This document shows, one piece after another, positions 1 through 34,357 of a stretch of 64,000 bases of DNA. Location of the stretch: contig JADEYG010000015.1 of the NCBI GenBank assembly GCA_016906335.1, positions 868,001 to 932,000 on the forward strand, given 5' to 3'. The notes beneath the pieces were generated by a model, which searched no databases, was not told where the DNA came from, and worked only from the letters and a program-made list of their open reading frames with translations. Both the position numbers and the translations under genes were made by a program. Source of the DNA: Novakomyces olei (lineage: Eukaryota). How positions within the stretch are numbered: position 1 is the first letter of the stretch; each line of letters opens with the position of its first letter.

Positions 1-3000
1 AGGAAAAGTTTAGGACGCTGCCTTTTGCTGGAGAACGCGTCTATTTTACTGGCGACTATGTGCGAATGTTGCTGGACGGGTCTTTGGAGTATATTGGAAG
101 GGAAGACAGTCAGGTAAAGCTTCGTGGGCAACGTATTGATCTACGGGAAATAGATCATGCTATTGCAAGGTTTGAGGAACACCATGATCATGGTTTACAG
201 GTTACAAGCTCACATACATTTGTCCTTGAGCATCCTACTGGCAACTCACAGCACCTGGTCTCCTTCGTGGAGACGAGTAAAAGGCCAGAAAGAGAGAAGG
301 ATATGCGAATCATGATTCGTGATTGCTGCAAGACGTCTTTGCCGTCGTACATGATGCCAGATTATATCGTTTTTATCGAATCTTTACCGTTGAGTGCGGC
401 TGGAAAAGTGTTGAAATCCAAATTGGAACTTGTGTTCCGTGAAGAGGCTGAGAGGGCCAGCTTGCCGGACGACTCGAGTCCGGAAGGTAATCAAGAGGCG
501 TACTCTTACGTTTCCGAATGCTTTGCCAGATTTTCCGGCAGACCAGTAGGCAAAATAAGGCCAAACATGACGATGCTCTCGTTGGGTCTTGATAGCATTT
601 CTGCTATTCAGATGGGAGCATGGCTTCTTGAAACACAAGGCCTAAGTATCAAGCCCATTGATCTGTACAAGAATGATACACCCAGAAAACTGTCGCGCTA
701 CATCGATACAATCTCGCGGCACAATCAGGGCAGAGACGTAGTGCCTGCCGAGTTTGCGTCTGAAATGAAAATGTGCGCACACAAACTCTTGAAACAAAAT
801 GACGCAGCGTGGGAAGAAGAAGGCGTTGACTATGCTCTTCCCTGTACCGACAGCCAAAAGGCCTTTTTAAGCGCCTTTTACCAGAGCAACGCTTCAGCAT
901 ACGTAAATTATAGTGTGTATGAGATTAATCAGGGGGTGGTGGATACTTTAAGTGCTTCATTAAAGAGTCTTGTTGACAACGTGCCTATGCTGCGCACTAG
1001 ATTTGTGCAGACTGCTGACTTTAAAATACCTTTTGTACAAGTCTGCGCCAGCAAGGAATCCACAATTGCTTTGCAAAAAAGATGCATTAAAGACGCTTCT
1101 GAAATAACTAGCGTCTTAAACCAGTGTCGTTCGGATTTGGCGAAATATATATGGCGGGATACGTCGGCGCTGCCTTACTCTGTTGTTCATGTTGCTTGCG
1201 AGCAACACAATTACCTCGCGTTTATTGGCCTTCACGCTATTTTTGATGCGTGGTCGTTGGATATAATGCTGAGGTCAATTATGGCATTTGATGGCAAGTA
1301 CAGTGCAAGGCTGGATACTCAAGTGACCACCGAATCTGCGCTTTTATGGATCCTTTATGAAGAAGCCCGGTGTGCCTCTGATGAGTGTAGATCGTTCTGG
1401 GCCGATCACGTTTTACCGGGTATGGGCAGCGTGCCCTCGCTGAATCCTGACAAGTCTGATACGGGAAAGACCGTTGTATCGAAATCAATTTGCGACATAC
1501 CTTTCTCTCGACTTGAGAGCGAGTGCAGAGCTATCGGTGTGCCATTCCAGGCTTTAGGTCAACTGGCGTGGGCTAAAGTGTTGGGCGCTTACAATGGAGA
1601 GAAGCACGTCACTTTTGGAGACGGTAAGTTGGTACCTTGTAATTGAATTTCACTTCCAATTCCATATATTTCACCGTCGATTGCTAACAATGCTAGTCCT
1701 GTCTGGCCGTCTGGGAATGTCTGGTGTAGAAAATACTCCAGTAATATGTCTAACGACGGTTCCGATAACTGTGACTTTGGAGGGAAAAGTCGGGAGTATC
1801 CTGCAAAGGATAGCTGCATTTGAAACAAGAGTTAGTGACAGGCAGCACACTCCTCTTCAAAAAATCTCTGCCTGGACGGGCGCCGGATCTGAGCCCTTGT
1901 TTGAGTCTGTGTTTGTATACCAAAGAATCGCGCGAGAGACCTCGATTGCTTACAAGCCTTTTGCCGACGATGCGACTGCAGCGGTATGGCTCTAATTATT
2001 TTAATCTCCTCTCTTCCTTTTTTTTTTTTTTTTTTTTTAAATTAATTCCTTTTTAGATTATTAATTTTGGTAAAACCTAACGCAAGTCTAGCTGCCCGTC
2101 TCGGTTGAGCTCTCGATCGATAGCGACCAGGACAAAATAAACGTTTGTGTTACGTCACAGAGCTCATTCATTCCGGCTAAGCAAAACGATTTGATAGTGA
2201 AAACGCTAGCAAGTCTTATCTCTCGGCTTCCCTATGCTCTGGATCAGGACATTGGTGAAATTGAGCGATTTCTGGACCCGAGTGTGCTTTCAATTGTGCC
2301 TGCACGAATCGACGAATTTAAGTCACAGGTCCGTCTGGCCCATGAGTTTGTGGAATACTACGCACAAGTCTCGCCCGATAAATTGGCACTTGAAACAGCA
2401 GATGACGTGGACGGTGATGCAGATGATAACAGCGGCACCGGTATCCCAGTAAACTACCGCGAATTTACATACTTCCAACTGAACCAGCTTGCAGACCGAT
2501 TGAGCGCACGAATTCTGGAAATGAATTTACCAGACAAATCTATAATCTGTGTATGCTTTGACAAACAGTTTGAGGCTTTTGTTTCGATTCTTGCAATATT
2601 AAAATCAGGCCATGGCTTTCTCGCAATCGATTTCACTGCTCCGCAAGATCGGAAAAAGTTTATAATCCAGGACTCGCAGTGTAGTCTGCTCCTCACGTGC
2701 TCCTCGCTCTTGCCAAATGTATCAGAATGCGAGAGTGTTGTCCATGTTGTTTGCGCACTTGATCTGCTTGCAGAATCGAACGGGGCTAATCCGGAGACCC
2801 AGATTGCGAAGCCTGTACACATATCTCCAGAGGATACTTGCTATGTACTGTATACGAGCGGGAGCACAGGCAGGCCTAAAGGCTGTGCTATTTCACACCG
2901 CAGCCTCGTGCAGGCTCTCCTCTCCTTCAAGGACCAATTTGAAGGTTGCTACGACCAATCCTCAAAGTTTTTGGCATTTGCATCTCTCCATTTTGACGTG

Positions 3001-6000
3001 AGTGTGCTCGAGCAGTATTGGAGTTGGTGTGCCGGCATTTCTGTCGTTGCTTTGCCCAAATCTGCATGTCTCCAGGATATTCCACTAGTTGTTCGTACCT
3101 TTGGAATAACCCACATTGACCTGACGCCGAGTTTAGGATCGCTGCTGGAAGTTGACGAAGTCCCCTCGCTCCGTGTACTCATTACAGGCGGAGAGCAGAT
3201 GCGCCTGGATATGATGAGCAAGTGGGGTCCTACTGGGAAGCTATTCAATTTCTGGGGACCGACAGAACTGACTATCGGTGCCAGTGTCCTGAGACATGTG
3301 CCCTCAAATGCGAAGCCTAGCAATATTGGATTGCCGTTTAAGAATTGCTCGCTTGCCGTGATGCGGGAGCCGCAAAACATTGCAGTTTTGCGTGGAGCCT
3401 TGGGTGAAATTGCAATGGGCGGGCAGCAAGTTGCGAAGGGCTACATTAACCTGCCTGAGCAAACAGCAAAGGCCTTTAAGCAACTGCCGTATTGGAAGGG
3501 TTTCACTTACTACACTGGCGACGTTGGCCGATTGATGTATGACGGATCAATTGATTTTGCCGGACGACGGGACGATCAAGTCAAGCTGCGCGGACAACGG
3601 ATCGAAATTGACGAAATAAATCACGTCATTTTGGGGTCGTGCCGGGACATTGAAAACTTGTGTACACTAGTGCTCAAGACTCGTGCGGGCGGAGACTTTT
3701 TAGTCTCGTTCATAACGCTCTCCGCCAAACGGACCTCAGATACAATGACAGATACAATGACAGATACAATGACAGATACAATGACAGATACAATGACAGA
3801 TACAATGACAGATACAATGACGGGCCCCGTGACTGTTTTGCACACTTCCTCTGCACAAAAAGTGCGGCAGAGGGCCAAGGAGCATTGCCAGGCTAAGCTT
3901 GCAGTGTACATGGTCCCCAGCTCGTTTATCGTTCTGTCCAAGATCCCTCTGACTCCGACTAATAAAATCGACAAGCGCTGCCTGGCAAGCGTGTTTGATA
4001 GTTTAGAAGCGGGTACTGCTCAGTCCGACAACAGCAGGCTTGAGCAGTCAATTACAGACGCAAAAGAGCTTGAGATTGCCCGTATCATTTGCACTTTCAC
4101 GGGCACCAGTATAGAATCTGTCACCCGGGGCACCTCTGTTGTTGCTCTCGGCATTGACTCTATCTCCATTATTCCTCTAATGAAAACGCTTCAGCAAAAG
4201 GGCATCCGTGTGGACTCTGTTTCCCGTATTCTCCAGCAGGCAACTATTGCCGGGATCGCTCAACTGTCTGAGGCGTCTGGGAGGGAAAAGGAGGACAAGT
4301 TTGGACGGGTGGATACCTTGTCTGACTTTGTTCGAGCAGTAGAACCGCAATTGCAGAGCCGGCTCGGCTTGAAAGCTCAGTACGAGAAAGCTCAGTACGA
4401 GAAAGCTCAGTACGAATGCATTCTGCCCTGTACACCTCTGGTAGCAGGAATGCTGACGGAAAATGCTTCTGACCCACTACGCCCGTACATGAACACGTTT
4501 AGCTTTGCCTTGAAACCTGCAGTTGATACAGCGAGATTCAGGTGGGTTGTGGATAGGGCAGTCGGGAGGTACCAGGTACTACGGTCTCGGTTCCTGGCAA
4601 CAGACCAAGGATTTGCCATGGTTGTCCTGCACGCAAAAGACTGCCGCCCTTGGCACACTACGATCGACTTGAAATGCCCAGTTGTTGAAATAGACTCGCC
4701 AGCGCTACAGTTTTCATTACATGCAGACGTCTTTTCAATTGCCATCTTTCACGGAATGTACGACGGCACTAGTCTGGAGGCCCTGTTCAACGATATCTGG
4801 CTTGACTACTCTGCCTCTGAGAGCTTGATTGTGCGGCCAAAGTACTCTGATACGCTGCCTTGCCTGCTTGATTTCGATGCAGAAAAAAGCGAAAAGTTTT
4901 GGCGGCAATCACTCCGTTATTTGCCCCATACACGGCTGCGCCTTGGCCGGCAGTCGCATACATTAACGGGGGTAATAGACGCCGACAGGTCGGCAGTTGC
5001 ACGTGCCTGTGCCACAGTGTTTTCCTGCACTACCCAGACTGTACTGCTCACTGCCTGGATGTATACATTATGGCAGCGCTTTGGATCAAACACTACGGGA
5101 CTCGTGTACGGAGGACGGGACCAGACTCGGCATCAAATCGACAGTGTAATGGGCCCCACGTTCAATACGCTGCCTATTCAAATCGGAGCAAGGCACACAC
5201 TTCCAGAGAATCGATGCACCTGGCGCAGTCTGGCCGAGCCCTTTTTTGCTCAGTACGTACAGAGCCTCGAGTACCAGACGACGCCTCTTCGCTTTATACA
5301 CAAATGGCTCAGAGTCGCCCGGCACGAAAGCCTGTTTGACAACGTTTTTGTGTTTAACCATGCAAGTCACGAGTCTGCAGTGCAGTTCGAGTATTGGACT
5401 CCCTTGGCCTCTCCGGCAGTAGCAGCTCTGTACCCTCTTGCCATCGATGTGACGGAAGACAGTACCATGTTCCATTATACACTGACTGGAGCAGTAGAGG
5501 GAATGGAGGCCTCTGACCTGAAAGCACTGGCGCTCGAGTTCCAGGAGGCGCTGCGACACATGGTAAAAGAGCCGGATGCTATTGTCCAGCTTCCTTTGAG
5601 CGAGATGAGCAAGGAGGCCGAGTACGGCACTAGTCTTGAGCAAGCGTCTAGTCGGGCGGCAGATGATGGTTTGCCTTTAGGAGACCAAGAAGGCTCTGCT
5701 GAAGAGTGGACGCCTGCTTCGCTTGTAGTAAGGGACACTGTGAGCGAAATGTGCAGAGTGCCCATAGCCAGTATTCGGCCCAGCACTTCCATCTTTGCCC
5801 TCGGAATAGATAGTGTGGACGCCGTTTCTCTCGCCGGAAGACTACGGAAACGTAAACTCATAGTCAAACTGCCCTCAATCATGCGATCGCATACAATCAA
5901 AGGCATTGCACAGGCAGCGACAGCAGACGGGCAGCAAGAACGTATGGGTTCCGGTAACGGGAACCCGGTTGTCAGTGCTTACACGGCTCAGCTGGGCCGG

Positions 6001-9000
6001 GGCAGTTACCCGTTGACACCGTTGCAGCAGTCGATGCTTGTGCAAACTCAAAACTCGGACAGGGCAGAGTATATTAACCATACTTTGCAGAAATTAGACC
6101 CGCAAATTGGGGTGGCAAGACTCGCACGTGCTTGGCGACAGACTCTGGACCAGATTGAAGTGTTGCACGCAGTTTTCCCCCGACTGCCTGACACTCTGTC
6201 CCAATTTTCTGGGCAAATTTTGTACCAAAATTTTGACAGGCGGCAAGCGCACGAGATCCGTGTCGACCGTGTACCTTTTGGAGGCAGAAATGATGAAATA
6301 AGCCCACTGTACCACAGTCACAAGGCGGCAGCAGTATCGGAGTTTGACCCTGCTCATCGTCCGCCTGTAAAGGTGACCCTGTTTGAGGATATGAGTGGCA
6401 ACTGCCATAACTATGTGGCATTATCTATTCACCACGCACTCTACGACGGAGCCAGCTTGGACCTGGTCTACTCTGCCGTGATGGGAAACTACCGAGCCGA
6501 CTTGAGCAATGATAAAAATTGCATTGATAAAGGCAATACTAGTATTGGCGACATGAACAATGGAACCAGTACTAACCCACTTGTTCCGTTCAGCACTTTT
6601 GTCAGGGCGGTTTGGGCACTGGAGGCGCATGATTCTGCACCGTTCTGGCAGTCTGTACTGGCAAATTTCCGGGAAGAAGAGTCCCTTTTGCCCATAAAGT
6701 ACCCTGCAGCCCAAACGGCCCCGACAATCACGGCAGAGCTTGTATGTCATGGTGTTGGATTAGACTCTGTACTACACGGCTGTGGTCGCTTTGGGGTCAG
6801 TGCTTTAGCCTGTGCTCAAGCCTGTTATGCGCTCGTACTGGCGGAGGCGCTTGGAGAGAGCAGCGCTGTTTGCTTTGGCAATGTGACTTCTGGCCGGCAC
6901 TTGTTTGAGCATGCTGATCGTGTCTGTGGTCCGTGTATGAACACGTATCCTGTCCGAGTCGGAATTGCACACAATAGATCAGCAGCTGGCCGTATAGTGG
7001 ACACTGCCAAGGCACTGCACGAGTTCAATAATGCGTCCTTGAACCATCAGTTTTCTTCCTTAAACGCAATTGCCCAGGCTGCCAAAGTGCCCAGCAGTAT
7101 GCTGTTCAATACCTTGTTTTTGTTCCAGCGCTCGCAGACAGCCGCTGCCGGGTCACGTCTGCCCTGGACGACGGTTCAAGGAAACGCTGAGCTCGAGTAC
7201 CCTTTGGCCATTGAAGTAGAGTTTAATCCTCAAGCAATTGTCTGGCGCGTCTCTGCGGACGCACGTTACATGTCCAGCGAGGAAGCTCAGTTACTGCTCT
7301 CCCAAGTCGCTCTTAATCTCGAACGGTTCGCTTCATACGCTGATTCAGCAGAGGATGAAACGCCAAGTGCCAATACGACCAACTGCGCTGCTACGTGTAG
7401 TGATCCAGTTGCAAGCAAATTTACAGAGACGGTGGCCGTGCTGAAATCTTTGTTCAACTATGCCAACATTATTGAAGCAGAAATCGATGGGTCTAGTGTG
7501 CTGTTTTGCCATATCGCTCCAGAGTCAGATAGCGGTTCAGAAAGCGGTTCAGAAAGCGGTTCAGAAAGCGGTTCCGGAACCCGTCTCGTCCCAATGGATC
7601 AAGGGGAAATTTTGCAGGTTCAGCTGGCTCTTAAAGTCGACTACAATTTGAGAAAAGTGCCTCAGTATATTGTTCCCTTTAGGGGCCAAACTAACCTTGA
7701 ATCATTGCAAAAGGTTTGCAAGGACACGAAACAGCTGCAACAGTTTTCGACCACTATTTCCACTCTGGCGCCAGGATTTAAAGAGACACTTGCTCAAGTC
7801 ATTCATGTGCTCTCCGAGTTTACTGGAGCCGATTCTAAAGCGATTGCCCCAGAAACCCGGCTCTTTAGCTTGGGTATTGACTCGATTTCCGCCATTAAAC
7901 TGGTAAAAGTGCTAAAGCGCCATGGCATTCGCACTACTGTAGCTGCAGTTATTCAGCTCGGGACAGTAGAGCGTGTTGCCATGAGTGCCATTGGCCAAGC
8001 GCGAGGCCGATTGCAGAAAGACGCAGCCACTGCACAGGCTGAGGATTTCAAGCAAAAAGATCTTGCGACAATGAGAGAAAGAGGCCTCAGTAGCTACAGG
8101 GACGGAACGCAATGTGCCCCAGGCCAGTCTTATGCTCTTGGACTATGGGAGTCCAGTGGAGGCAAACGTAATTTTTCCACGTTTGTGTTTAGTGTTAATG
8201 GCTCATTAGCCAGTGCGCTTCAGGAGAGATGGGCCCGGCTTTGTGAAAGGTTTGATATTCTGCGCATTACGTTTCACAGACTCGAAGATGGCAAGTTTTT
8301 CCAGACAGTAGCGGACAAAAGATCGCAGTTTTGTGTGATTAAAACTGCCTCAAATACGGAGACAGAGAGGGCGATTATAGAGAGCAAGTTGCAGTGCAAA
8401 CTTATACACCAGCAGCCGCCTATCTACCCCATACTTTTGCTGCCAGCAGTGGAGAATGAAGAGCCTTCTACCCTCTGCTTGCACGTGCATCATGCGCTGT
8501 ACGATGGCGTCAGTATCGGCGCGCTTACCGACGTATTACTTGCAGAAAGCGATGAGGAAGCAGAGGCAATTTGCTCTCAGTGGGACAAGAATTTTGTCAA
8601 GTTTGCTCGTCAGGTGGAAGCACGGCAGCAGCAAGAAATTCTGCCTTACTGGGTCGCAAAACTGCATAATACCAAAGCAGACAATCGCTTTTGCCAAAGG
8701 TATTTAAAGTCTCTAAAGAATACGCCGGTCGCCTTGGCAGCTAACAGCGCTTTTGTGCCCCAGTTACGGATCAATACAGAGGCAGCAGGAGCTCAGTACG
8801 AAATTTCACAGGCTGTCCGAGTGATTGCTCAAGTAAGCCAGCGAGCAGCTCATTTACTAGGCGCCAGTGCCTTTACTTTTGGGCTCTACGTGCAGGCAAG
8901 AGCAGCCAATGGCAGCAACGTATTTGGACCTGTGTTCAATGTTGTGCCCATCGCTATTACGCAGGCTCGAGAGGCTCATTGGACAGACGTGGCGCGTCAG

Positions 9001-9384
9001 GTACGAGATGCTTTGGCAGATTGCTCTACTGGATGGCGGCAGCAAGTGGATCCGTTACTACTCGCTCGGGAACTCGGAATACCGAGATCCGAGCTTTTTG
9101 CTTTTACCGTTAATTATCTCGAAGGCGATGGAGCGGGAGCAAGAGCTGATAAAAGGTATAGCAGTCGCGATGTTTCTGCTTTTGCACATAAACTAGTCGG
9201 CGCAGGTGAGCATATTTGCCAGCAGTCACGAGCAGAAATTCATGATGACGCCTTAATTTCACTGCTGGATATTGAAGTCCGTCGGTTGCAGGGCGATAAA
9301 TACGCTGCCGGCTGCTTTAGCTGGGACTGTTTCTTCAATGACGAAGAACTGGCTCGTTTTGTTTATGAGTTTGGAGCGATATAG
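1..9384 (+). CDS. Ferrichrome-type siderophore non-ribosomal peptide synthetase (SidC/NPS2/Sib1 family), 5'-truncated by the window; visible domains A(end)-T-C-A-T-C-T-C-(A remnant)-T-C
   Basis: Introns 1624-1696 (joins FGD|VLSGR) and 1984-2091. A-domain motifs [31 protein letters not shown] and [15 protein letters not shown]. Four T-domain LG(L/I)DS motifs at ~582, ~4147, ~5800 and ~7870. C-domain motifs LHAIFDA, FHGMYDG and HHALYDG (twice). Terminal T-C repeats without a thioesterase are typical of ferrichrome synthetases. Confidence 0.92.
3737..3821 (+). repeat. Perfect in-frame 12-bp tandem repeat (CAGATACAATGA) x7 encoding (TDTM)n
   Basis: Read directly; lies in the C-terminal subdomain of the NRPS A domain. 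Confidence 0.95.
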
Positions 9385-22397: not shown

Positions 22398-24259
22398 ATG
22401 GATGCAGCTGGTCTTTTGTCAGCCCGGGTTTCACTGGATGATTTATTACGGAATCCCCTCGAGTTTAAACGGGCTTCTGCGAATGTAAGCAGTGACACAA
22501 CTTCTGCTTTGCAAATGTCAGGGCACAATATTATAATCTTGGGCGAAAAGGCTGGTCAGTTACGGAAACGAGATCATAGTGAGAGCGATAGTGAAGGTCG
22601 AAATAGAAATGAAAATAGTTCGGGAAGTCTCAGCAAAGATCAATCAAAGGACCACGGAAATGAAGATTTCAAAGACGAAGCTGAATCTGAGGACGATCTG
22701 CCTGTACCAAAACGCGTACTTGTCCCCCAGAGTTCCGTATCTTCGCGTTGGCAGGATATTATACCCCCACCAGCTGGTCTGATGAACCTGGGCAACACGT
22801 GCTTTATGAGCTCTGTTTTACAGCTGCTTTTAAACAGTGCGCCATTGACGCGCTTCTTACAGTCAGCACAACACAGTGGCGAATGCCGTATGCATGCGTG
22901 TACTTTATGCTGTATGGAAGAGTTGGTGGGCAAGGCTTTCAACAAAAGTGGCGGCAGATCTGCTCGGGCTTTACGTCCTACGGCAATGCTGTCTCTTTTA
23001 CCCAAAATAAATCGCAGTTTTCGGCTTTATCGTCAGGAAGATGCCCACGAGTTTTTGCGGTCGCTCTTAGACTCGTTTCAAAATGCTTTGCTGCAAACTA
23101 AGGAATTACGATCACTAGATCATTCCTCGAAGGAGACTTCGCTTATTTACCGGATATTTGGCGGTTACCTGCGCCAACAAGTTCGATGTTTGGAGTGTCA
23201 GTATTGTAGCAATACTTACCAGACTTTCCTCGATCTCTCCCTTGACGCAGAGTATTCGTCATTGCAAAAGGCCTTAGCCTCTTTTTGCCGGCCCGAAATT
23301 TTACGTGGCGGCAACCAGTATCGCTGCGACAAGTAAGCTGTATTTGTCTTACCTTTCCATGGCTTAGTTTTGAGGGTCAAGTCAATTATCTTTACTCTTT
23401 ATTGCTGCTCAATGTGCCACATCATATCTTGAATCTTTTTTGCTTTTTATTTCTAGCGCCGTGTTTTATCGTTAATTCCGCGAATAAATAGTTATTTTAT
23501 CATTTTCTAACTATTAGGTGCCGACACAATGTCGATGCGGAAAAGCATGTGGCCATTTACCAATCGCCGCCTTTATTGACCATCCATTTTAACCGCTTCG
23601 CATTTTCTGGCTCAGCTGCCAGACTGACAAAAGTTACAAAGCGCATTGAATACCCTGAACTGCTTGATATTACGCCTTATTGTGCAAGTTCTGAAAGCAG
23701 GTCTAACGGTCAGAGCACAAAAAGGCGTCGGAAGACGTTTGACAGAGGTCCCAGGTTGTACAAGCTTACTGGTGTATTAGTACATTCTGGATCAAGTACG
23801 CGTAGTGGTCATTACTACTGCTATGTACGTGCGTCAAACAATATGTGGTATTCTTACGATGATGACCTTGTATCTTCTGCAAAGCTTCGTCACGTCCTGG
23901 CGCAACAGGCGTACATCCTACTTTACTCTGCTGCGGAAGATTCCCCTGCAGAGACAGAGTCAGCCAGGCAAGTCAATGGATCGCAAAAGACGGGTGTAAA
24001 GTTTAATGCCGAGACAAACAAATTGCAGTCTGTTAAAAGGATGGGCAATGAATCTGGGTCAGAACAGGACCGCGAGCGACTTTCGGCACATTCGCCATTT
24101 TCAGTACAGAAACCCGATATTACACGACCACCTAAACCTGTGCCTGAACTACAGCAATCGTCTTCTTCGTCCTTATTACTGCCAAAGGCGGGTCGTAACG
24201 GATCAAGGGACAAACGGGTATTTCGTATGAAGAACCGAACAGGTAGAGGCCACTTTTAA
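22398..24259 (+). CDS. Ubiquitin-specific protease (USP36/USP42 / S. pombe Ubp16-like)
   Basis: Cys box GLMNLGNTCFMSSVLQ, QEDAHEFL and His box VLVHSGSSTRSGHYY; one intron ~23333-23518. Confidence 0.9.
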
Positions 24260-24369
24260 CTCCCGTATCAAGGCCAAAATGTACATATATCAACTAATGA
24301 AACGATACTAATACAAGAAAGCTGTTCATCTATGAGGTTTTTACACATCTACAGTAGCTTGGACGATAG

Positions 24370-24906
24370 GATTGGGGGGAACAGAAATACATTAACAAAA
24401 ATCCAATACGCAAAAGCAGATATAATGATACGTGTCTTTTCTCGTGTGTTGCAACGCCATGATCGACAAGAGGCTCGTCGTCATGGCGTTCTGCGTTCAA
24501 GGGCACTGGCCGAAACCAGGCAAAGCCATCTCGACGAGCTAAGCTCGCCCAGTGGCGTAGTGCGTTCAAAAAGATCAAAATAAAGCTTTGGATGAGCCTG
24601 AAAGGCCAGGAAGTTTGTAAGCGTTTGAAGATGCCCCAACACATCGTAGAGAGTTGTTTGTCACAGTAGAATAGCGCACGTTCAGAGTCACGAGGTATGT
24701 CAGACGGTTGGTTTTTGGGCGAGGATCAAAGAGCGAGGTCCCGCCTATTTATACTTTAGTGGAGGCGGCCGCCAACGGCTGCTTACTAATAGACGTTGGG
24801 ATCTAGATTGCGGTCCATTAACGGCCGAAACCTGGGATGTCAGGTGTCCGTGAGAATCCACTGCACATAGACTGGAATGTGTGAATCACAACACGGTCAC
24901 GTGACT
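24370..24906 (-). repeat. Inverted-repeat copy A (partner at 30011-30533)
   Basis: Reverse complement aligns by eye to 30011-30533 with about 6 substitutions and 2 indels (23 nt and 9 nt). TATAAATA at 24746-24753 on the minus strand; GTCACGTGAC at the inner edge. Confidence 0.95.
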
Positions 24907-25384
24907 TGCGAGTAGCAAACAAGTATTGATACATCCAAGACTATATTTAACGTTCAGGAGATGATATGGAATATTGAAAATCAAATTCCTTTTTTCATCA
25001 TATTAATCATTCTGGTGTCCCGCGTGTACTTGTTAGCAATGTGGCGGCAATACACGTAGGCACGGTCCTTTCTAAATAAGAAAAAATTGCAAAATGACCT
25101 TTCTCTGTAAAGCAGCTGAGTCCAATATGTCACTTTTCGATGGGCGCATTTGTATCTGTTGATATTTTCTGATAATGATCCGGCAAACAATTCAGCCTGG
25201 AAGACTTGTCTACGGACAATGCATTTGCGTAGCTAATCGTTATTAACTCCTTAAATTTTTGTACCAGATTGAATAGATTTGCGCGAGCGCAATCGTAAAT
25301 GACTAAACGCACTTTTAAAACTTTTTCGCAGCACGATAAGAGTCTCAATAGTATATACACTTGATTATGGCTTCCCATCCAAAT

Positions 25385-27256
25385 TTAGTGCCGCTGATTG
25401 CTAGAAGACGCAGGATTCGGAGTTGGCGGAGCAGAAGTCGAAGCACCAGTAGAAGCACCAGCTTCCCGTTCCAGAAAGCTAATGAATTGGCTCGATACCG
25501 ATTCGCCTCTGTGATTATCTGACAGGACCGAGTTTAAAGTACTACTTGATCCATGACGCGATAAAAACAAATCTGCTCCGCTGTCGCCAATTGGACTACG
25601 CAAAGAGCTCCCCGATGATTTTATAAGGCCAGCAGTGGCTTGCTGATCTTCTGTCCACTCCAGCATAGAAGCAATTAATTGTAAGACTTCGAAACGTTTT
25701 GTATCTGTCCGTGGCAGAGACAAGAAAGACAGAAAAAGATTCGTAACAAGTTGCTTGTCCACCATTTCGTCAGCAGCACCCTTGCGTAGCAGCTTTGCTG
25801 CTTTTATCAAATGTTCATTGAGTATTACTGCCTCATGTCTCAACTTGCCAATCAAAAGATTCTTTTCTTTGATAGAATGCTCAAACACGCAGAGCCGCTC
25901 CCGTTCTTGCTCCGCAGTTTCGGCCCGGATAGTGACGTCACGCAATTGCCGTTCCAACTCACTAACGCGTTCGGAAAGCACGTCAGTCTTGATCTGCGAG
26001 GCCTCAACACTTTCCCTTAACTCACGTTTACGCTCTTCTTGTACCAGACTCAGAGCTTGCCGCAATGCACTATTCTCTTCTATATGTTCCAGCTGAATTT
26101 TTTCTACTTCAGCCTCAAACTGGGAAACGTTCTCTTCCAAAGACCGGATGCGATCCTTTGACGCTTCTCTTGCACGACGTTCCTCCATAGCCATAGCCTC
26201 CCAGTCTGTTACTTCCTTGACCAAACGCTCACAGTGCATGCGTGCGTCATGCTCAGCAGCAATCAATTGCATTCTTTCATCACGCCAGTCGGTGTTGAGG
26301 TCATTTGCGCTTTCTTTTAGAGCCGATATCTGTTCCGAGAGCTTTTGAGCCTCTTCGTTGGAGATAGCCAATTCTCTGTGTAGTCTCTCTAATGCATCAT
26401 CTTTAGCCTTAACGCTCGCCTCTAATTGATCAATAATCTGTCTGTTCTCTCTAATTTCATCTTCATCAGCTTGAATGCGTTCGCTCACACTTTTTTTGAT
26501 ATTAGCCAGCTTTGAAAGCAGTCCCCGATACTGTGCGTCTAACTGTGACTTTTCATGCTCCAGTTTTGCAGCGCGTGCCTTCCAATCGTCCAGTTCTCCA
26601 TTTTTTTGTTGATCCGTAGAAGCGGCTGCAAGACGCGTTTCCAGTTGGTGCACATTATCCTCGAGCTCTTTAATACGCTGGTCTTTTCCATCGCTAGCTG
26701 TGTTGTCCTCATCAGCCTTGAGCTCATCAACCTGGATCTCATCAGAGCCTGATTTACCTGCTCCTCGCTCCTTCAATCCGCCTCTTGACTCCTGCCTTTC
26801 ATCTCCCTCGCTGGCTGCCTCTACAGAAGAATCTTGGATATTTATAGCACCTCCATCTATAGAGGGCACACCTCCAAACGAATCAGGTTCTACAGGGCAT
26901 TCCTGAGTTGTATGGCTCGCTTGTGAGTCCTCAGGCACGTCCACATTCTGGTCCTGTGATTGCGACTTGGTTGGCAGTTCATTTGGAGGCAGTTTCTCTT
27001 CTTCGTCATAAACTTCAGTCGGGACCTGTGTCTGATCTCCGTTTTGAGATTCGCTTTGACTCTCTGCTTGATTCTGCGTTTGTGAAGCCTTCTTCTTCTT
27101 ATTCCTCTTCTTCTTGGACTTGCTTTCTACGGAAAGGTTTTCATGACGCTCAGGCTCCCGTTCAGCGTCTACTTGTTCTGTTGTACTCGTCAGTCTACCA
27201 AGCGCGTATTGTATGGCTAAACGGCAGGGGGCTTTACCTTGAACTGCGAGCGGCAT
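25385..27256 (-). CDS. RUD3: Golgin with a C-terminal GRAB domain (Rud3/GMAP-210 family)
   Basis: Long coiled coil; KEKNLLIGKLRHEAVILNEHL, VDKQLVTNLFLSFL, KRFEVLQLIASMLEW. The 5' end is uncertain. Confidence 0.82.
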   Translation of the reverse strand: MPLAVQGKAPCRLAIQYALGRLTSTTEQVDAEREPERHENLSVESKSKKKRNKKKKASQTQNQAESQSESQNGDQTQVPTEVYDEEEKLPPNELPTKSQSQDQNVDVPEDSQASHTTQECPVEPDSFGGVPSIDGGAINIQDSSVEAASEGDERQESRGGLKERGAGKSGSDEIQVDELKADEDNTASDGKDQRIKELEDNVHQLETRLAAASTDQQKNGELDDWKARAAKLEHEKSQLDAQYRGLLSKLANIKKSVSERIQADEDEIRENRQIIDQLEASVKAKDDALERLHRELAISNEEAQKLSEQISALKESANDLNTDWRDERMQLIAAEHDARMHCERLVKEVTDWEAMAMEERRAREASKDRIRSLEENVSQFEAEVEKIQLEHIEENSALRQALSLVQEERKRELRESVEASQIKTDVLSERVSELERQLRDVTIRAETAEQERERLCVFEHSIKEKNLLIGKLRHEAVILNEHLIKAAKLLRKGAADEMVDKQLVTNLFLSFLSLPRTDTKRFEVLQLIASMLEWTEDQQATAGLIKSSGSSLRSPIGDSGADLFLSRHGSSSTLNSVLSDNHRGESVSSQFISFLEREAGASTGASTSAPPTPNPASSSNQRH

Positions 27257-28903: not shown

Positions 28904-30010
28904 GTTATGTAATGAGAATATCGGTTTTTGGTATTCAAGGCAATAAATACCTAATACTTTTGAATAACAGAGTCCGATAATCCTGCCTGAATTTATTATT
29001 AATGACAAGCCAACCGAATTTATGCCAATATTACTGTCTTACAATGTCATATCAGGCTCGGCCATGTGACCAACATGTGTGTGAGCTTGAAACGGAGGTG
29101 GAGACCAAAAATAAGCGGTCAGTCAAAAAAGCGCATAAATATTTTGAAAATAGACCTGATCTCTTGCCGGTCATGAGCGTCGCACTTTTCTGGGTTTGCT
29201 TTACCTGCTTTACTATATGCGCTTCGACCAAAGGAATGGATTTACGCCATCGTGCTACAGGTCGCAATGTACAATAGTTATTTTTATCTGATATTGATAC
29301 TGCAGAATGACGAATTGTTACTGGAAGCTAAACCGCCGATTAAAAAGGCACCACGTGCCTTTCGAGATGAGGAAGTGCATCGTTAGCAGGCTTCTTACGG
29401 GGAAAGATTGCCAAATTTCTTACCCTGAACGAAAATTTTATATGTGTTTGGGCAGTTTTGGCTTGAGTCTTTTCATTACAGGGTGCACCTCTGTTGATAT
29501 ATAAACACTGTTTTCTTAATGGGATTCGATATTATTAGTTATTTCAAATACTTTTGCTCTATCGATTCCGCGTACAATTTTATGCTGATTGGACGAAAAC
29601 TATACGAAGCAGGTACTTGGATAATATTTGAACAAGCTCTGATTAATGTAGCAATTACAACATTATGTCAATATTATTTGGTATTGCACGATTACCTGTT
29701 GTATGCTATACTAGATTGACTCTAGAGACTTATGCTTGAAAAATCCAAATATATTGAATTGAACGCAACACGTTTTTAAAGCTGTGTCTTAGTCGATATC
29801 AAACTGATTAAAATCATTGATTTCCCCTTTGCTTATATCTTTTGTATCTCTTATTTAACCCATCAATATGGTATTTTGTATTGAGTCACGTGGAAGTCGC
29901 GTTATGTACATATTTCAATTGTCTATTTCATTTCGCATCATTCATCAACTTGTAAATTTTATATGTATGTTTTTATTATCAATTGCAATCAAATTTATAT
30001 ATATGGAGAG

Positions 30011-30533
30011 AGTCACGTGATCGTGTTGTGATTCACACATTCCAGTCAATGAAGTCAATGTGCAGTGGATTCTCACGGACACCTGACATCCCAGGTTTCG
30101 GCCGTTAATGGACCGCAATCTAGATCCCAACGTCTATTAGTAAGCAAAGTATAAATAGGCGGGACCTCGCTCTTTGATCCTCGCCCAAAAACCAACCGTC
30201 TGACATACCTCGTGACTCTGAACGTGCGCTATTCTACTGTGACAAACAACTCTCTACGATGTGTTGGGGCATTTTCAAACGCTTACAAAGTTCCTGGCCT
30301 TTCAGGCTCATCCAAAGCTTTATTTTGATCTTTTTGAACGCACTACGCCACTGGGTGAGCTTAGCTCGTCGAGATGGCTTTGCCTGGTTTCGGCCAGTGC
30401 CCTTGAACGCAGAACGCCATGACGACGAGCCTCTTGTCGATCATGGCGTTGCAACACACGAGAAAAGACACGTATCATTATATCTGCTTTTGCGTATTGG
30501 ATTTTTGTTAATGTATTTCTGTTCCCCCAAATC
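30011..30533 (+). repeat. Inverted-repeat copy B; candidate TATA-driven structured RNA or small orphan gene
   Basis: GTCACGTGA at the inner edge; TATAAATA 30150-30157; ORF 30259-30555; hairpins at 30347-30378, 30384-30397 and 30413-30450. Confidence 0.95.
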
Positions 30534-30660
30534 TGCCCTGCAAATCTTCCAGTAGACTGTAGGTAAAGTATATTCCTAGTTCCCAGTAAGAGCCACGACG
30601 CATGTGATCGTGATGATCGGTTGCATTCCAGCATAATTCTAAATCTAATCTAATCTTTTT

Positions 30661-30910
30661 TATTGTATTTATTGTATTTATTGTATTTATTGTATTTATT
30701 GTATTTATTGTATTTATTGTATTTATTGTATTTATTGTATTTATTGTATTTATTGTATTTATTGTATTTATTGTATTTATTGTATTTATTGTATTTATTG
30801 TATTTATTGTATTTATTGTATTTATTGTATTTATTGTATTTATTGTATTTATTGTATTTATTGTATTTATTGTATTTATTGTATTTATTGTATTTATTGT
30901 ATTTATTGTA
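30661..30910. repeat. Perfect (TATTTATTG)n array, ~28 copies
   Basis: Read directly; ends ~80 bp upstream of the TBCB start. Confidence 0.97.
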
Positions 30911-30989
30911 TGCTATGTTATTCAGATTAATTTAATTATTAAATATATATTTATGGCCATATGTTGTACATTTATTTTAATTCGCGTGT

Positions 30990-32196: not shown

Positions 32197-34357
32197 TTAC
32201 ACATCTTGCCCTTCCGCAATTTGTTCATTCATCAGAGTATCTGTCGCTTGTGAGAAGAATAGCACGGCATCATTCTTTCCGACGTTCGTGAATGCATAGT
32301 AGTTGCCACGTGGTACTCGGAACACACTACCCGCTTTTACCATAAACGTAGTTTTATGAACGGAAACCTCTAGTGTACCTTTATGAACGAAAAAGGTCAT
32401 TGCCGACGAATTGACTGACTTGTGCGGTTTTGTTTGGCCAGCACGAATTTCCACAATACCGTTCGAGAAAAATTCGTCGTCCTGAAAGAATTTTGCAAAT
32501 TTTATTCCTTGAGACGTGCTCTCCTGCATTTCCAGTGCGTTTCTCGAGATAGCGACATCTAGATGTCAGTTTTTTGCTCGTAGAGAAAGGAATTAAAACA
32601 TTATTAAATAAAGAAATTATACAAACAGATTGGAAAAATTCTAAGAGACAAGATTGAAAAACAGAAATAAAAATAGAGACAGTTCTCTCACCTTCTAATT
32701 TTGTCCGATTATGAGGCCAGTCGACTACGGTAGCTTCCACGAGTGCATTCGTCTGAACATCGTCCTCATCATCCTCCTCGTGACGCCCAAGTCTCTTCGG
32801 GACAGAAGCAGTACGCCGACGTTTCCGTGCCGGTTTGCCTTCCACATCGTCCTCCGTAGTCTTCTGTACAATCTGCTCCATATGAGGTACAGCAGGTCCT
32901 CCTGATTTTCTTCGGTCACCAAGTTTATATACAATACGCTCGCCCTTCCAATACGCGAGTGGTGGAATCCGTTGCCTTGACGATTTTCGCGTTACCCCAT
33001 CCGCTGCCATATTTAATTCTGTCTGCTTATCCGCCTCGATCTCTGATAAGCGTTCCTCAACGTGAACGTCTTTGCTCTTCTCCCTCACACCTGCACTTGG
33101 ATTTTTCATTTTTGCCTCGGATTTTGGTGGTCTTCCTCTTCTTTTGGCAGGTTTTATGACGGGCTGCTTACCCTCCATCGGCTCGGTAGCATGAAGCCTC
33201 TCCGTAGCATCGACGCTTACACTGCTCGTTTTGCTTTGAGCCTTTGCAGGACCATTTGCCTTGACTTGTTTATCATTTACAGCTGTTGTCCGGCCTTTCT
33301 TCTTGTGCGGAGAAGCAGTAATTACTGCTCTCTCTTTTTTATCCTGAGCTTTTGTGTTCCGCTTTGGCTCTTGCGTTTCTTTGCGTGATGGAGTAGCAGC
33401 ATTAGAGCGGAATTGCTGCGGGCTCCTTGGGCTGAACTGAAGCGGTGTGGCCTTGAAAGGCGTTGTGTCGCTGTATTGTGGAGTACCCGTCTTGTGAGCT
33501 GAAGGAGAAGTTGTACGAAGTCCGCGTGCAGCGCTGGGCTTTTGAGAATTCAAGCCTGAGCGTGGAGTTGTAGCCATTTCCTTTTTCTGCCAGAGCGGTG
33601 TAGCCTCTTTGTCTTTGTTAGGTAAGGCTGCACTAAAAGAGACTTCGTCTATTGAAGAATCTGAATCATCAGGCTGCGATTCTGCTGCCTGCCGCCGATG
33701 ATCAAGCGAAACAAGTTTGGCTTTTGGTCTTGGCGGCGATTGTTTGCGTGCAGACTTTACTTGCACAGGCGATTGCAGTTTGGACAGGTTTGCACGAGTA
33801 GGCGATTTAAATAATTGTTGCTTTGGTTTGGCAGGTTGCGATTCTTTTATCTGCGCAACGGGCGGAGAAGTGGGTGTGGCAGTAAGCGAAGCTGTATGAT
33901 ATTAGATTTAATTGCAAAGCTAGAACAATTTTATTTTTAATTGTATGTCTTACTTGATCGTGCCGACTCGCGCGACTCACTGCTCCCTCTAGAACGAACG
34001 CTTTGAGGCGACGAAATATCTCGATGTGCGTCTAAATTATGTTAGACATAAATTGAACATTGCCCACTTGTCATCAAAACAAACAAATAAATTCGACAAA
34101 AATCAAGCACTCGCAAACGTACCAAAATCCAGCTCCATGCTCTGTGGTTCGGATAAGGTATTACTTTCGCCACGAGAGGCAGAGGACGGTCGGAGCTCGA
34201 CAGACGGCGAAACGGGGTCGTGAAAAAAACCGCTCAGATCTTCAAACCCTCGACTATCGCGGCGACCTTCTGGCACACTCAGGCCAGTGCGTCGCCCAAC
34301 GCGACCGACATCGGTAAAGTTGTTTGCGGCGCGAACGCGCCGCCCTGCGTCGGCCAT
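32197..34357 (-). CDS. MIF2: Centromere protein C
   Basis: N-terminal VGRVGRRTGL, CENP-C motif RKSSRQRIPPLAYWKGERIVY and C-terminal cupin domain (VPRGNYY, LFFSQA); about 3 introns. Confidence 0.88.

Follow-up and report, generated by a model that had tools for sequence, protein, structure and literature searches.

What is the sequence unit that lies twice, inverted and nearly identical, in this stretch of DNA: a gene for a structured RNA, a short coding sequence, or duplicated DNA with no role at the level of RNA? The first-pass annotation had proposed a Pol II non-coding RNA or a structured mRNA element, belonging to no known family. We found the non-coding RNA part of this proposal to be the best supported, by promoter spacing, constraint, repeated modules, 3' motifs and codon score, and we put the probability that the unit is a functional structured non-coding RNA at roughly 0.6, judged from sequence. 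The mRNA-element part was not supported, since copies B and C of the unit point into the 3' ends of convergent genes, and the unit is thus no leader or promoter of a neighbouring gene.

Genomic setting and copies of the unit

The DNA comes from a 14.3-Mb, 15-contig fungal assembly, and the window is the whole stretch of 64,000 nucleotides that was analysed (G000:C15:868001-932000). Gene content, spliceosomal introns and matches to fungal U3 and SRP RNAs fit a yeast-like ascomycete as host. Genes in the window include those for an NRPS and for UCH, GRAB, Pex16, CAP-Gly cofactor B and Rpn8 proteins. The NRPS (2092-9384, plus strand) has 2430 aa with one adenylation and three condensation/carrier stretches, a layout that suggests a siderophore-type synthetase. 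For a 506-aa open frame (32381-33901, minus strand), no Pfam family was found at E 0.01. A perfect (TTTATTGTA)28 array lies at 30659-30911, between copy A and the cofactor B gene.

A genome search with the unit returned four matches, all on contig C15 and all within 52 kb (Table 1). Copies A and B form an inverted pair whose arms match at 99% over 388 nt, with further matching stretches of 94 and 41 nt upstream. As the first-pass annotation had stated, the two differ by only four substitutions (30273, 30290, 30356 and 30529) over the ~375 bp after the TATA box, and both of their indels (9 nt at 30044-52 and 23 nt at 30146) lie upstream of it. That annotation missed the full copy C and the 3' fragment D, 21 kb before the window. 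Copy B sits between the 3' ends of the UCH-family gene and the GRAB-domain gene.

Copy C is part of a rearranged block. From it, DNA of the B upstream type continues as far as the end of the GRAB gene; the sequence then jumps to the downstream flank of B and finishes in fragment D, and the C/D block is a circular permutation of window positions 24211-25538. The block (G000:C15:846860-848311; L003, L071 and L072) holds stranded 3' pieces of the GRAB and UCH genes with a 57-nt terminal redundancy, and is compatible with an integrated DNA circle. The 3' flank of copy C is common to copy A over 29 nt. A protein kinase gene (L071, 5866-8459) ends beside copy C; its T-x-Y loop may relate it to the MAK/Ime2 family.

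Table 1. Predicted features of the unit, its copies and its surroundings (window coordinates unless a contig is given).
Feature	Position	Strand	Remarks
Copy A	30011-30533	+	inverted-repeat partner of copy B
Copy B	24370-24906	-	TATA at 24753; modules at 24520-24569 and 24451-24500
Copy C	C15 846885-847418		full copy, 89% identity; from genome search
Fragment D	near copy C		58-nt 3' fragment of the unit; from genome search
Upstream promoter region, copy A	30011..30149	+	putative regulatory role
TATA box (30150-30157) and GC-then-pyrimidine spacer	30150..30186	+	likeness to U3/U1 promoters
Predicted ncRNA, copy A	30187..30529	+	about 325-345 nt; both ends predicted
Weak terminal helix, 5' strand	30187..30195	+	pairs with 30497-30506; P 0.63-0.84 in A
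Small hairpin	30198..30216	+	loop region with ACAUACC; P 0.80-0.93
Long-range stem domain	30260..30411	+	around U-rich loop and module 1; P 0.90-0.96
Module 1	30334..30383	+	UUGAAC leader, GCA/UGC base, GCCA/UGGC helix, 7-bp tip, 3-nt loop
TTCG hairpin (CTGGT-TTCG-GCCAG)	30384..30397	+	alternative fold only; mean pair P 0.02-0.03
Module 2	30403..30452	+	diverged copy of module 1, equal length and geometry; includes 17-bp stem
Sm-site-like A-U5-G	30501..30507	+	letters identical to the genome's U1 site
3' flank with GUAG/GUAA cluster	30530..30600	+	ACTGTAG at 30556-30562
98-codon ORF	30259..30555	+	open in three copies; judged non-coding
Intron-like donor, branch and acceptor set	30120..30208	-	judged probably chance

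Since the C/D block co-duplicated the unit together with flanking intergenic DNA, constraint could be tested between copies B and C. Substitutions numbered 7/275 in the 3' core and 11/340 in the whole predicted RNA, compared with 37/463 in the co-duplicated intergenic DNA (P 0.002 and 0.006, respectively). By segment toward the unit, divergence was 0.123, 0.095, 0.065, 0.046, 0.081, 0.062, 0.021 and 0.031, and because it falls gradually, gene conversion alone could give the low value of the unit. The A/C and B/D flanks directly past the unit are far more diverged than the unit itself, yet ACTGTAG is retained in all four copies, suggesting an older duplication than one would expect from the 99% identity of A and B. 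Copy C, in which the Sm-like site, one leader and a single stem pair are altered, may be decaying.

Substitutions within predicted stems were mostly compatible with pairing. Among 13 substitutions across A, B and C, six fall in predicted stems and one breaks a pair, against 4.8 expected under strand-symmetric mutation (P 0.015) but only 2.3 with the observed spectrum fixed (P 0.20). RNAalifold on the three copies found no double change among 95 pairs, the copies being too alike, and all covariation considered here is between paralogues.

Several of these patterns would also fit a locally duplicated stretch without RNA-level function, or an element acting as DNA, whose quasi-palindromes arose and were repaired through template switching from arm to arm and whose copies are alike by conversion among neighbouring repeats. 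The block around copy C, with its pieces of two neighbouring protein genes, the divergence gradient toward the unit and the lack of significance in the same-spectrum test all favour such a reading. Against it, copies A and B share exactly the promoter, the body and the terminator-like ACTGTAG motif, and nothing else. Promoter and fold bear on the same choice.

Promoter, fold and twin modules

The promoter region of the unit resembles those of the U1 and U3 genes of this genome. Homology of copy A with B and C starts abruptly at GTCACGTGA, an E-box-like palindrome (30012-30020), and within the window the CACGTG palindrome is present only in copies A and B. The TATA box of copy A reads TATAAATA; its 11-nt context, GTATAAATAGG, is common to the unit and the genome's U3 promoter and was found at no other independent locus among 84. 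Pyrimidines occupy 14 of the 17 nt before the predicted start, compared with 14 in U1, 12 in U3 and 9 in U17, while the equivalent spacers of 11 other TATAAATA sites in the window hold 4-10. This U1/U3-like spacer argues against a purely DNA-level element. Because U1 and U3 start 38 bases after the first T of TATA, we infer that transcription of the unit would start at 30187-30188.

Upstream of TATA, the unit and its models differ. The U1 and U3 promoters have a telomere-motif box just upstream of TATA (L068 and L069, about 1440-1460), and the unit is without it. The presence of an E-box together with the absence of this box suggests that expression of the unit is probably condition-dependent. 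A 13-nt telomere motif has many internal sites in the genome (242 matches versus 1 for the control). Each copy has the 10-mer GGTTTCGGCC at two places, one in its promoter and one in its body (30094-30103 and 30386-30395, plus the equivalents in B), which makes 4 occurrences in the window where 0.12 are expected; presence in both parts is what DNA sites might show, and favours the DNA-level reading.

The structure put forward by the first-pass annotation beat dinucleotide shuffles, if modestly. For 30170-30540, the plus strand reached z -2.2 (3/100 shuffles) and the minus strand z -1.2 (11/100). The predicted transcript gave z -2.6 in A and -3.6 in B, with -2.2 for the opposite strand of B; known RNAs of the genome gave -4.5 (U1), -3.7 (U3), -4.1 (SRP) and -2.7 (RNase P), with 40 shuffles each. 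The signal was confined to 30290-30529, and the 5' third folded no better than shuffles.

Three consecutive hairpins had been proposed, of which two were borne out. Those at 30347-30378 and 30413-30450 appear in the minimum free energy (MFE) fold with mean pair P of 0.92-0.99, the second as a stem of 10+7 bp with one bulged A. The TTCG hairpin was disfavoured: forcing it costs 3.4-3.7 kcal/mol over the MFE, and its arms instead pair over long range, 30294-30307 with 30382-30397 (P 0.94-0.96), in a stem domain that also pairs 30266-30271 with 30398-30403. With module 2 excluded, this domain still reached z -2.2 in A and -4.1 in B. The terminal helix (30187-30195/30497-30506) is absent from the MFE fold of copy C. 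The ACAUACC in the loop of the small hairpin is complementary to a GUAUGU-type splice donor (P 0.03 versus shuffles), and the same letters double as an intron-like donor on the minus strand.

Strand preference was in line with the first-pass annotation. The C/T difference at 30356 turns a C-G pair into U-G and keeps pairing, and the stems favour the plus strand through G-U use and kept bulges, with better folding on that strand in six of six module/strand comparisons. Both strands do fold (z -2.2 for the minus strand, -4.0 for its module 2), as palindromic DNA would. The G-U pairs, the kept bulges and the plus-strand preference speak against palindromic DNA, as do long-range helices that lie outside the palindromes and are well supported, above all in copy B without module 2. 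On balance we regard the unit as rather unlikely to be DNA without an RNA-level role.

Hairpins 1 and 3 represent a single 50-nt module that was duplicated and has since diverged, which the first pass missed. In their alignment 40 of 53 columns are identical, and 0/300 shuffles score as high; 15 other window tiles of 196 reach the same internal-repeat score, and 12 of these coincide with simple-repeat arrays. The module period is 69 nt. In both modules the UUGAAC leader is unpaired and the GCCA/UGGC helix invariant. Module 2 folded at z -5.1 on the plus strand (0/200 shuffles) and -4.0 on the minus strand, and module 1 of copy A, the weaker U-G variant, at z -1.9 (8/200 shuffles).

Pairing was preserved as the modules diverged, to an extent that depends on the alignment. 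In an ungapped register, 14 of 14 drawn pairs hold in three distinct rows and five are changed on both sides (2/500 shuffles); we note that this is in effect one pairwise comparison, with the structure drawn from the same sequences, and that this register may overcount double changes, the module cores being shifted by one base. A gapped register shows a 6-bp core with two one-sided pair-keeping changes, a remodelled middle and indels summing to zero. Under random divergence of the observed size, a hairpin of this stability is retained with P 0.001-0.015; with half of the divergence on each side, P is 0.017 and 0.061.

Searches for further modules returned those of the unit. A strict module pattern, run genome-wide, found only the four modules of A and B and missed both C modules; a module covariance model, run on 373 kb or about 2.6% of the genome, recovered the six known modules and no others; and nhmmer gave no match under E 1.7 in 200 kb of flanking contig. 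DNA upstream of fragment D was no convincing old paralogue (local 62/300, anchored global 9/300, fold z +0.5). The 9-mer of the module leader occurs again at window 29759-29767, 250 bases upstream of copy A, without a hairpin.

The conserved leader and GCA/UGC base of the module are identical to positions 99-114 of the genome's 5.8S rRNA, and, apart from the modules themselves, this 5.8S element is what the module model matches best in 373 kb (16.3 bits, E 0.21). Such a 9-mer would turn up in rRNA by chance with a probability of about 0.02-0.05, and we noticed the match post hoc; as a pointer to a binding partner we treat it as a lead only. The 5.8S element has its own 3-nt loop where the modules have a hairpin of 14-17 bp, and there is no wider homology between 5.8S rRNA and the unit (30/60 shuffles).

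Features near the 3' end are consistent with termination on the plus strand. The Sm-site-like ATTTTTG of the first-pass annotation is present on the plus strand and, as an Sm site, weak: it reached P 0.06 versus shuffles, occurs in A, B and fragment D, is changed from A to G in copy C, and is predicted to pair with the 5' end of the RNA. Per 100-nt 3' flank, GTAR occurs four times in A, three in C and twice in B and D. Counts of 4, 3 and 2 were reached by 10, 74 and 320 of 2556 background windows, and those of B and D are ordinary. The unit body contains 0 GTAR motifs versus 2.1 expected. In S. pombe, Seb1 binds GUAG/UGUA downstream of the cleavage sites of mRNA and snoRNA genes, according to the text available from PMC4949328. 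Because Seb1 sites serve both kinds of gene, such motifs support a 3' end on the plus strand, not non-coding status.

Coding potential, strand and known RNA families

The unit could alternatively be an mRNA for a lineage-specific small protein of 98-104 aa that begins at ATG 30259, with the module period as an in-frame protein repeat. In A and B this ATG is the first one downstream of the predicted start, the frame is open in all three copies with no indel within it, the period is divisible by three, and ATG ORFs of at least 90 codons occur in only 22 of 304 non-coding pieces. The codon score, however, was -0.09 bits, lower than in any of 85 coding pieces, while 59 of 250 non-coding pieces scored at least as high, and three of nine changes are synonymous where 2.8 are expected. 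The stop codon lies in the diverged flank and is different in B, upstream ATGs are present in copy C, and the 17-bp stem lies inside the frame. The predicted protein has no Pfam family and no homologue among proteins of 53-172 aa; its three matches among 1.84 billion representatives are tandem-repeat proteins, aligned as summed short stretches. A coding role is, in our judgement, quite improbable.

We also considered a functional transcript from the minus strand that would use the GUAUGU donor at 30208, either for splicing or for spliceosomal cleavage of the kind seen in fission-yeast telomerase RNA. The set of donor, branch and acceptor is found in all copies (the strict pattern occurs in 15 of 490 pieces), and the 23-nt and a 1-nt indel fall inside the putative intron. 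A looser pattern, by contrast, yields 24 sets on the two strands of the window, two of which are these, and six genuine introns are U-rich with the branch close to the acceptor, unlike this set. That side has no shared promoter, reading of the sequence shows a stop ahead of the donor in every one of the three frames of A and B, and the G-U pattern and TATA box favour the plus strand. We think a minus-strand RNA very unlikely.

No known RNA family accounted for the unit. The first-pass annotation had reported no family hallmarks, and this stands: the Rfam search gave no match for the unit to E 10. Rfam 15 (4227 families) gave only two tRNAs across the whole window; between 29900 and 30700, four chance matches to E 10 were seen outside the unit, the best at E 0.61. 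Family scores for U2, U4, U5, U6, U11 and U12 gave no match on the unit to E 10.

Canonical genes for several known RNAs were located elsewhere in the genome. RNase P and MRP RNAs lie at L037 and L035 (74.7 and 70.5 bits), U1 at L068, U3 at L069 and SRP RNA at L070 (66.6 bits). The combination m1+m2+ACA was found once, at L074, which we take to be a U17/snR30-like gene by the m1/m2 motifs of U17. The RNase MRP RNA (L035 1501-2036) is 536 nt long; compared with the Rfam model, it carries roughly 280 nt of inserted sequence. The SRP gene (L070 1386-1709) was missed by a whole-genome search with the fungal model, although a direct scan scores it above threshold, and a blank result of that search therefore carries little weight.

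These genes bear on whether the unit is a degenerate member or offshoot of a known RNP RNA, such as a telomerase fragment, an RNase P/MRP-like P3 RNA, a U1 variant or U17. In its favour, the fold 3.4-3.7 kcal/mol above the MFE has a large internal loop, which looks P3-like, and a cloverleaf followed by the Sm-like site, and the loop of the small hairpin is donor-complementary. Against it stand the blank Rfam result to E 10, the canonical genes elsewhere and the missing telomere template. The P3-like loop can be drawn at 30274-30328 in the alternative fold only; the piece folds at z -0.6, and its letters are unlike the genome's own P3 loops. Alignments of the unit with rDNA and known RNA genes were not above shuffles, with the exception of RNase P (1/60) among 28 comparisons. 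Such an offshoot seems to us highly improbable.

Individual families were rejected on their own features. For SRP RNA, the family score including helix 8 gave no match on the unit, and for RNase P/MRP RNA neither P4 motifs nor family score did. U1 gave no match, and the donor-complementary 7-mer lies 16 nt inside the predicted start, not at the 5' end. The unit has no box C, and CTGA only near its 5' end, as against a box C/D snoRNA; for box H/ACA snoRNAs including U17, it has no H box between the modules and no terminal ACA. Derivation from rDNA was likewise rejected, with alignments not above shuffles. A solo LTR or mobile element was dismissed, the ends not being TG...CA on either strand and the four matches being clustered in 52 kb of a single contig. 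Mating-cassette boxes, Pol III B-boxes, a hairpin ribozyme and CAAX pheromone ORFs, looked for through their familiar motifs, were dropped by eye and by the Rfam scan.

Telomerase RNA was rejected on its template: the telomere repeat of the genome is GGGTTAGTTA/GGGTTAGTCA, carried by most contig ends, and CTAACCC is not in the unit. P6.1 of telomerase RNA is a 4-bp stem with an NUNGN loop in a three-way junction (available text of PMC3592445); the unit loop reads CUUAG atop a long stem, without the G of NUNGN or a three-way junction. A genome search for telomerase RNA with RF02462 and a strict filter found no match. The starts of contigs C11 and C12 (L015 and L016, 1-120) have a AACCAACA array in place of the telomere repeat, and the far end of C12 has a normal telomere.

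We found little sign of a base-pairing guide. The longest complement of the plus strand to mature rRNA was 10 nt, at shuffle level, and guide pairing of that strand with 18S, 25S, 5.8S and 5S rRNA and five small RNAs was nowhere above shuffles. Of 26 pairing comparisons three stood out, namely 12 nt with the 3' ETS (0/30), 11 nt with the 5' ETS (1/30) and an 11-nt identity with 5.8S rRNA (0/30); we discount the two ETS pairings because they are about what 26 tests allow. The rDNA itself appears dispersed, with 5.8S matches at 11 loci on five contigs (C2, C5, C7, C9 and C12; L080-L083). The rDNA unit on C9 is complete; a 5S gene follows its 25S gene at a distance of 450 bases and lies on the opposite strand.

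Searches beyond this genome returned no relative of the unit. A 22-nt pattern had 0 matches in viral stretches, and blastn against phages returned 10 records with a single 32-nt chance match at E 0.4. In metagenomes a 17-nt pattern, too short for the purpose, matched at least 120 loci, and among the matches listed none exceeded 39 aligned bases or 41 bits. The literature search, with subscription papers and supplements mostly outside its scope, returned no description of the unit RNA.

Proposed function and comparison with known systems

We propose that the unit, present in three copies, is a self-contained Pol II gene whose product is a structured non-coding RNA of about 325-345 nt, restricted to this lineage. 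The capped RNA would start near 30187, gain its 3' end through cleavage and trimming upstream of GUAG/UGUA, and have ends that pair weakly with each other. Each module would offer a single-stranded UUGAAC beside the GCA/UGC base and a GCCA/UGGC helix of fixed height. The conserved parts, an unpaired leader and a fixed-height helix base, point to a protein site rather than a guide, and each module may bind one copy of the same putative RNA-binding protein. With two such sites the RNA would act as a bivalent scaffold or a titrating decoy, not as a base-pairing guide or catalyst. The extra gene copies would add dose, and gene conversion would keep A and B alike. This two-site scaffold or decoy mechanism, taken in full, is tentative, possible rather than probable.

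More speculatively, the modules could mimic the 5.8S rRNA element; the RNA would then be an E-box-controlled bivalent decoy, titrating an assembly factor or a protein of the large ribosomal subunit. Such an RNA would represent a new class of fungal small nuclear RNA, beyond snRNAs, snoRNAs, RNase P/MRP, SRP and telomerase RNAs; we hold both the mimicry and the new class to be doubtful in the extreme. If true, a eukaryote would possess a trans-acting regulator of ribosome synthesis that works by mimicking rRNA, in a genome with rDNA over at least 11 loci.

We consider the unit a credible candidate for a structured RNA family that is new and restricted to its lineage. It would add a family to the stable structured RNAs of ascomycetes, a set whose listing is treated as almost complete. 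Its internal duplication points directly at the functional motif, and a pull-down with the 50-nt module would name the partner. If the unit is only converted palindromic DNA, it would advise caution in reading covariation between paralogues as RNA function.

Known systems share parts of this design. The genome's Pol II snRNA and snoRNA genes (U1, U3 and U17/snR30) are similar to the unit in TATA box and pyrimidine spacer, start offset, length (150-400 nt) and range of folding z, and U1 also in A-U5-G. The unit differs from them in having no sequence or Rfam similarity, no guide complementarity and no properly placed C/D or H/ACA boxes, three copies, and an E-box where U1 and U3 have the telomere-motif box. 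The S. pombe RNAs meu3 and meu19 are reportedly 'twin' non-coding RNAs; the text available from PMC4525289 names them as loci only. Fungal telomerase RNA resembles the unit in its Pol II-type gene, in an Sm-like site close to the 3' end, and in having a U-rich loop and a short loop closed by GAG/CUC (available text of PMC3592445), but the unit is far shorter, multi-copy and without a template for the telomere repeat of this genome.

Structured RNA candidates described in fungi are, like the unit, stand-alone hairpin RNAs in intergenic positions (PMC8216456, PMC5640933, as far as available). Those candidates are H/ACA-like RNAs of 57-343 nt, or UTR and intron motifs, from Saccharomycotina and Pezizomycotina with wide covariation, and the twin modules are not among them, in a comparison by the text descriptions in these two papers without their figures or alignments.

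The closest parallel in proposed mechanism is with meiRNA and mamRNA, scaffolding lncRNAs of the early-branching ascomycete S. pombe that are likewise stand-alone Pol II RNAs with repeated protein-binding sites (available text of PMC9486875 and PMC7859202). With Mmi1 and Mei2 motifs taken from the same texts (PMC7859202 and PMC9486875), a scaffold of exactly this type was rejected, as the unit is not enriched in UNAAAC (1, P 0.48), UUCU (2, P 0.80) or UU(U/G/A)G (8, P 0.09); meiRNA and mamRNA have 3 and 25 UNAAAC. Where those RNAs use short linear motifs, as the available texts describe, the unit uses a duplicated hairpin module.
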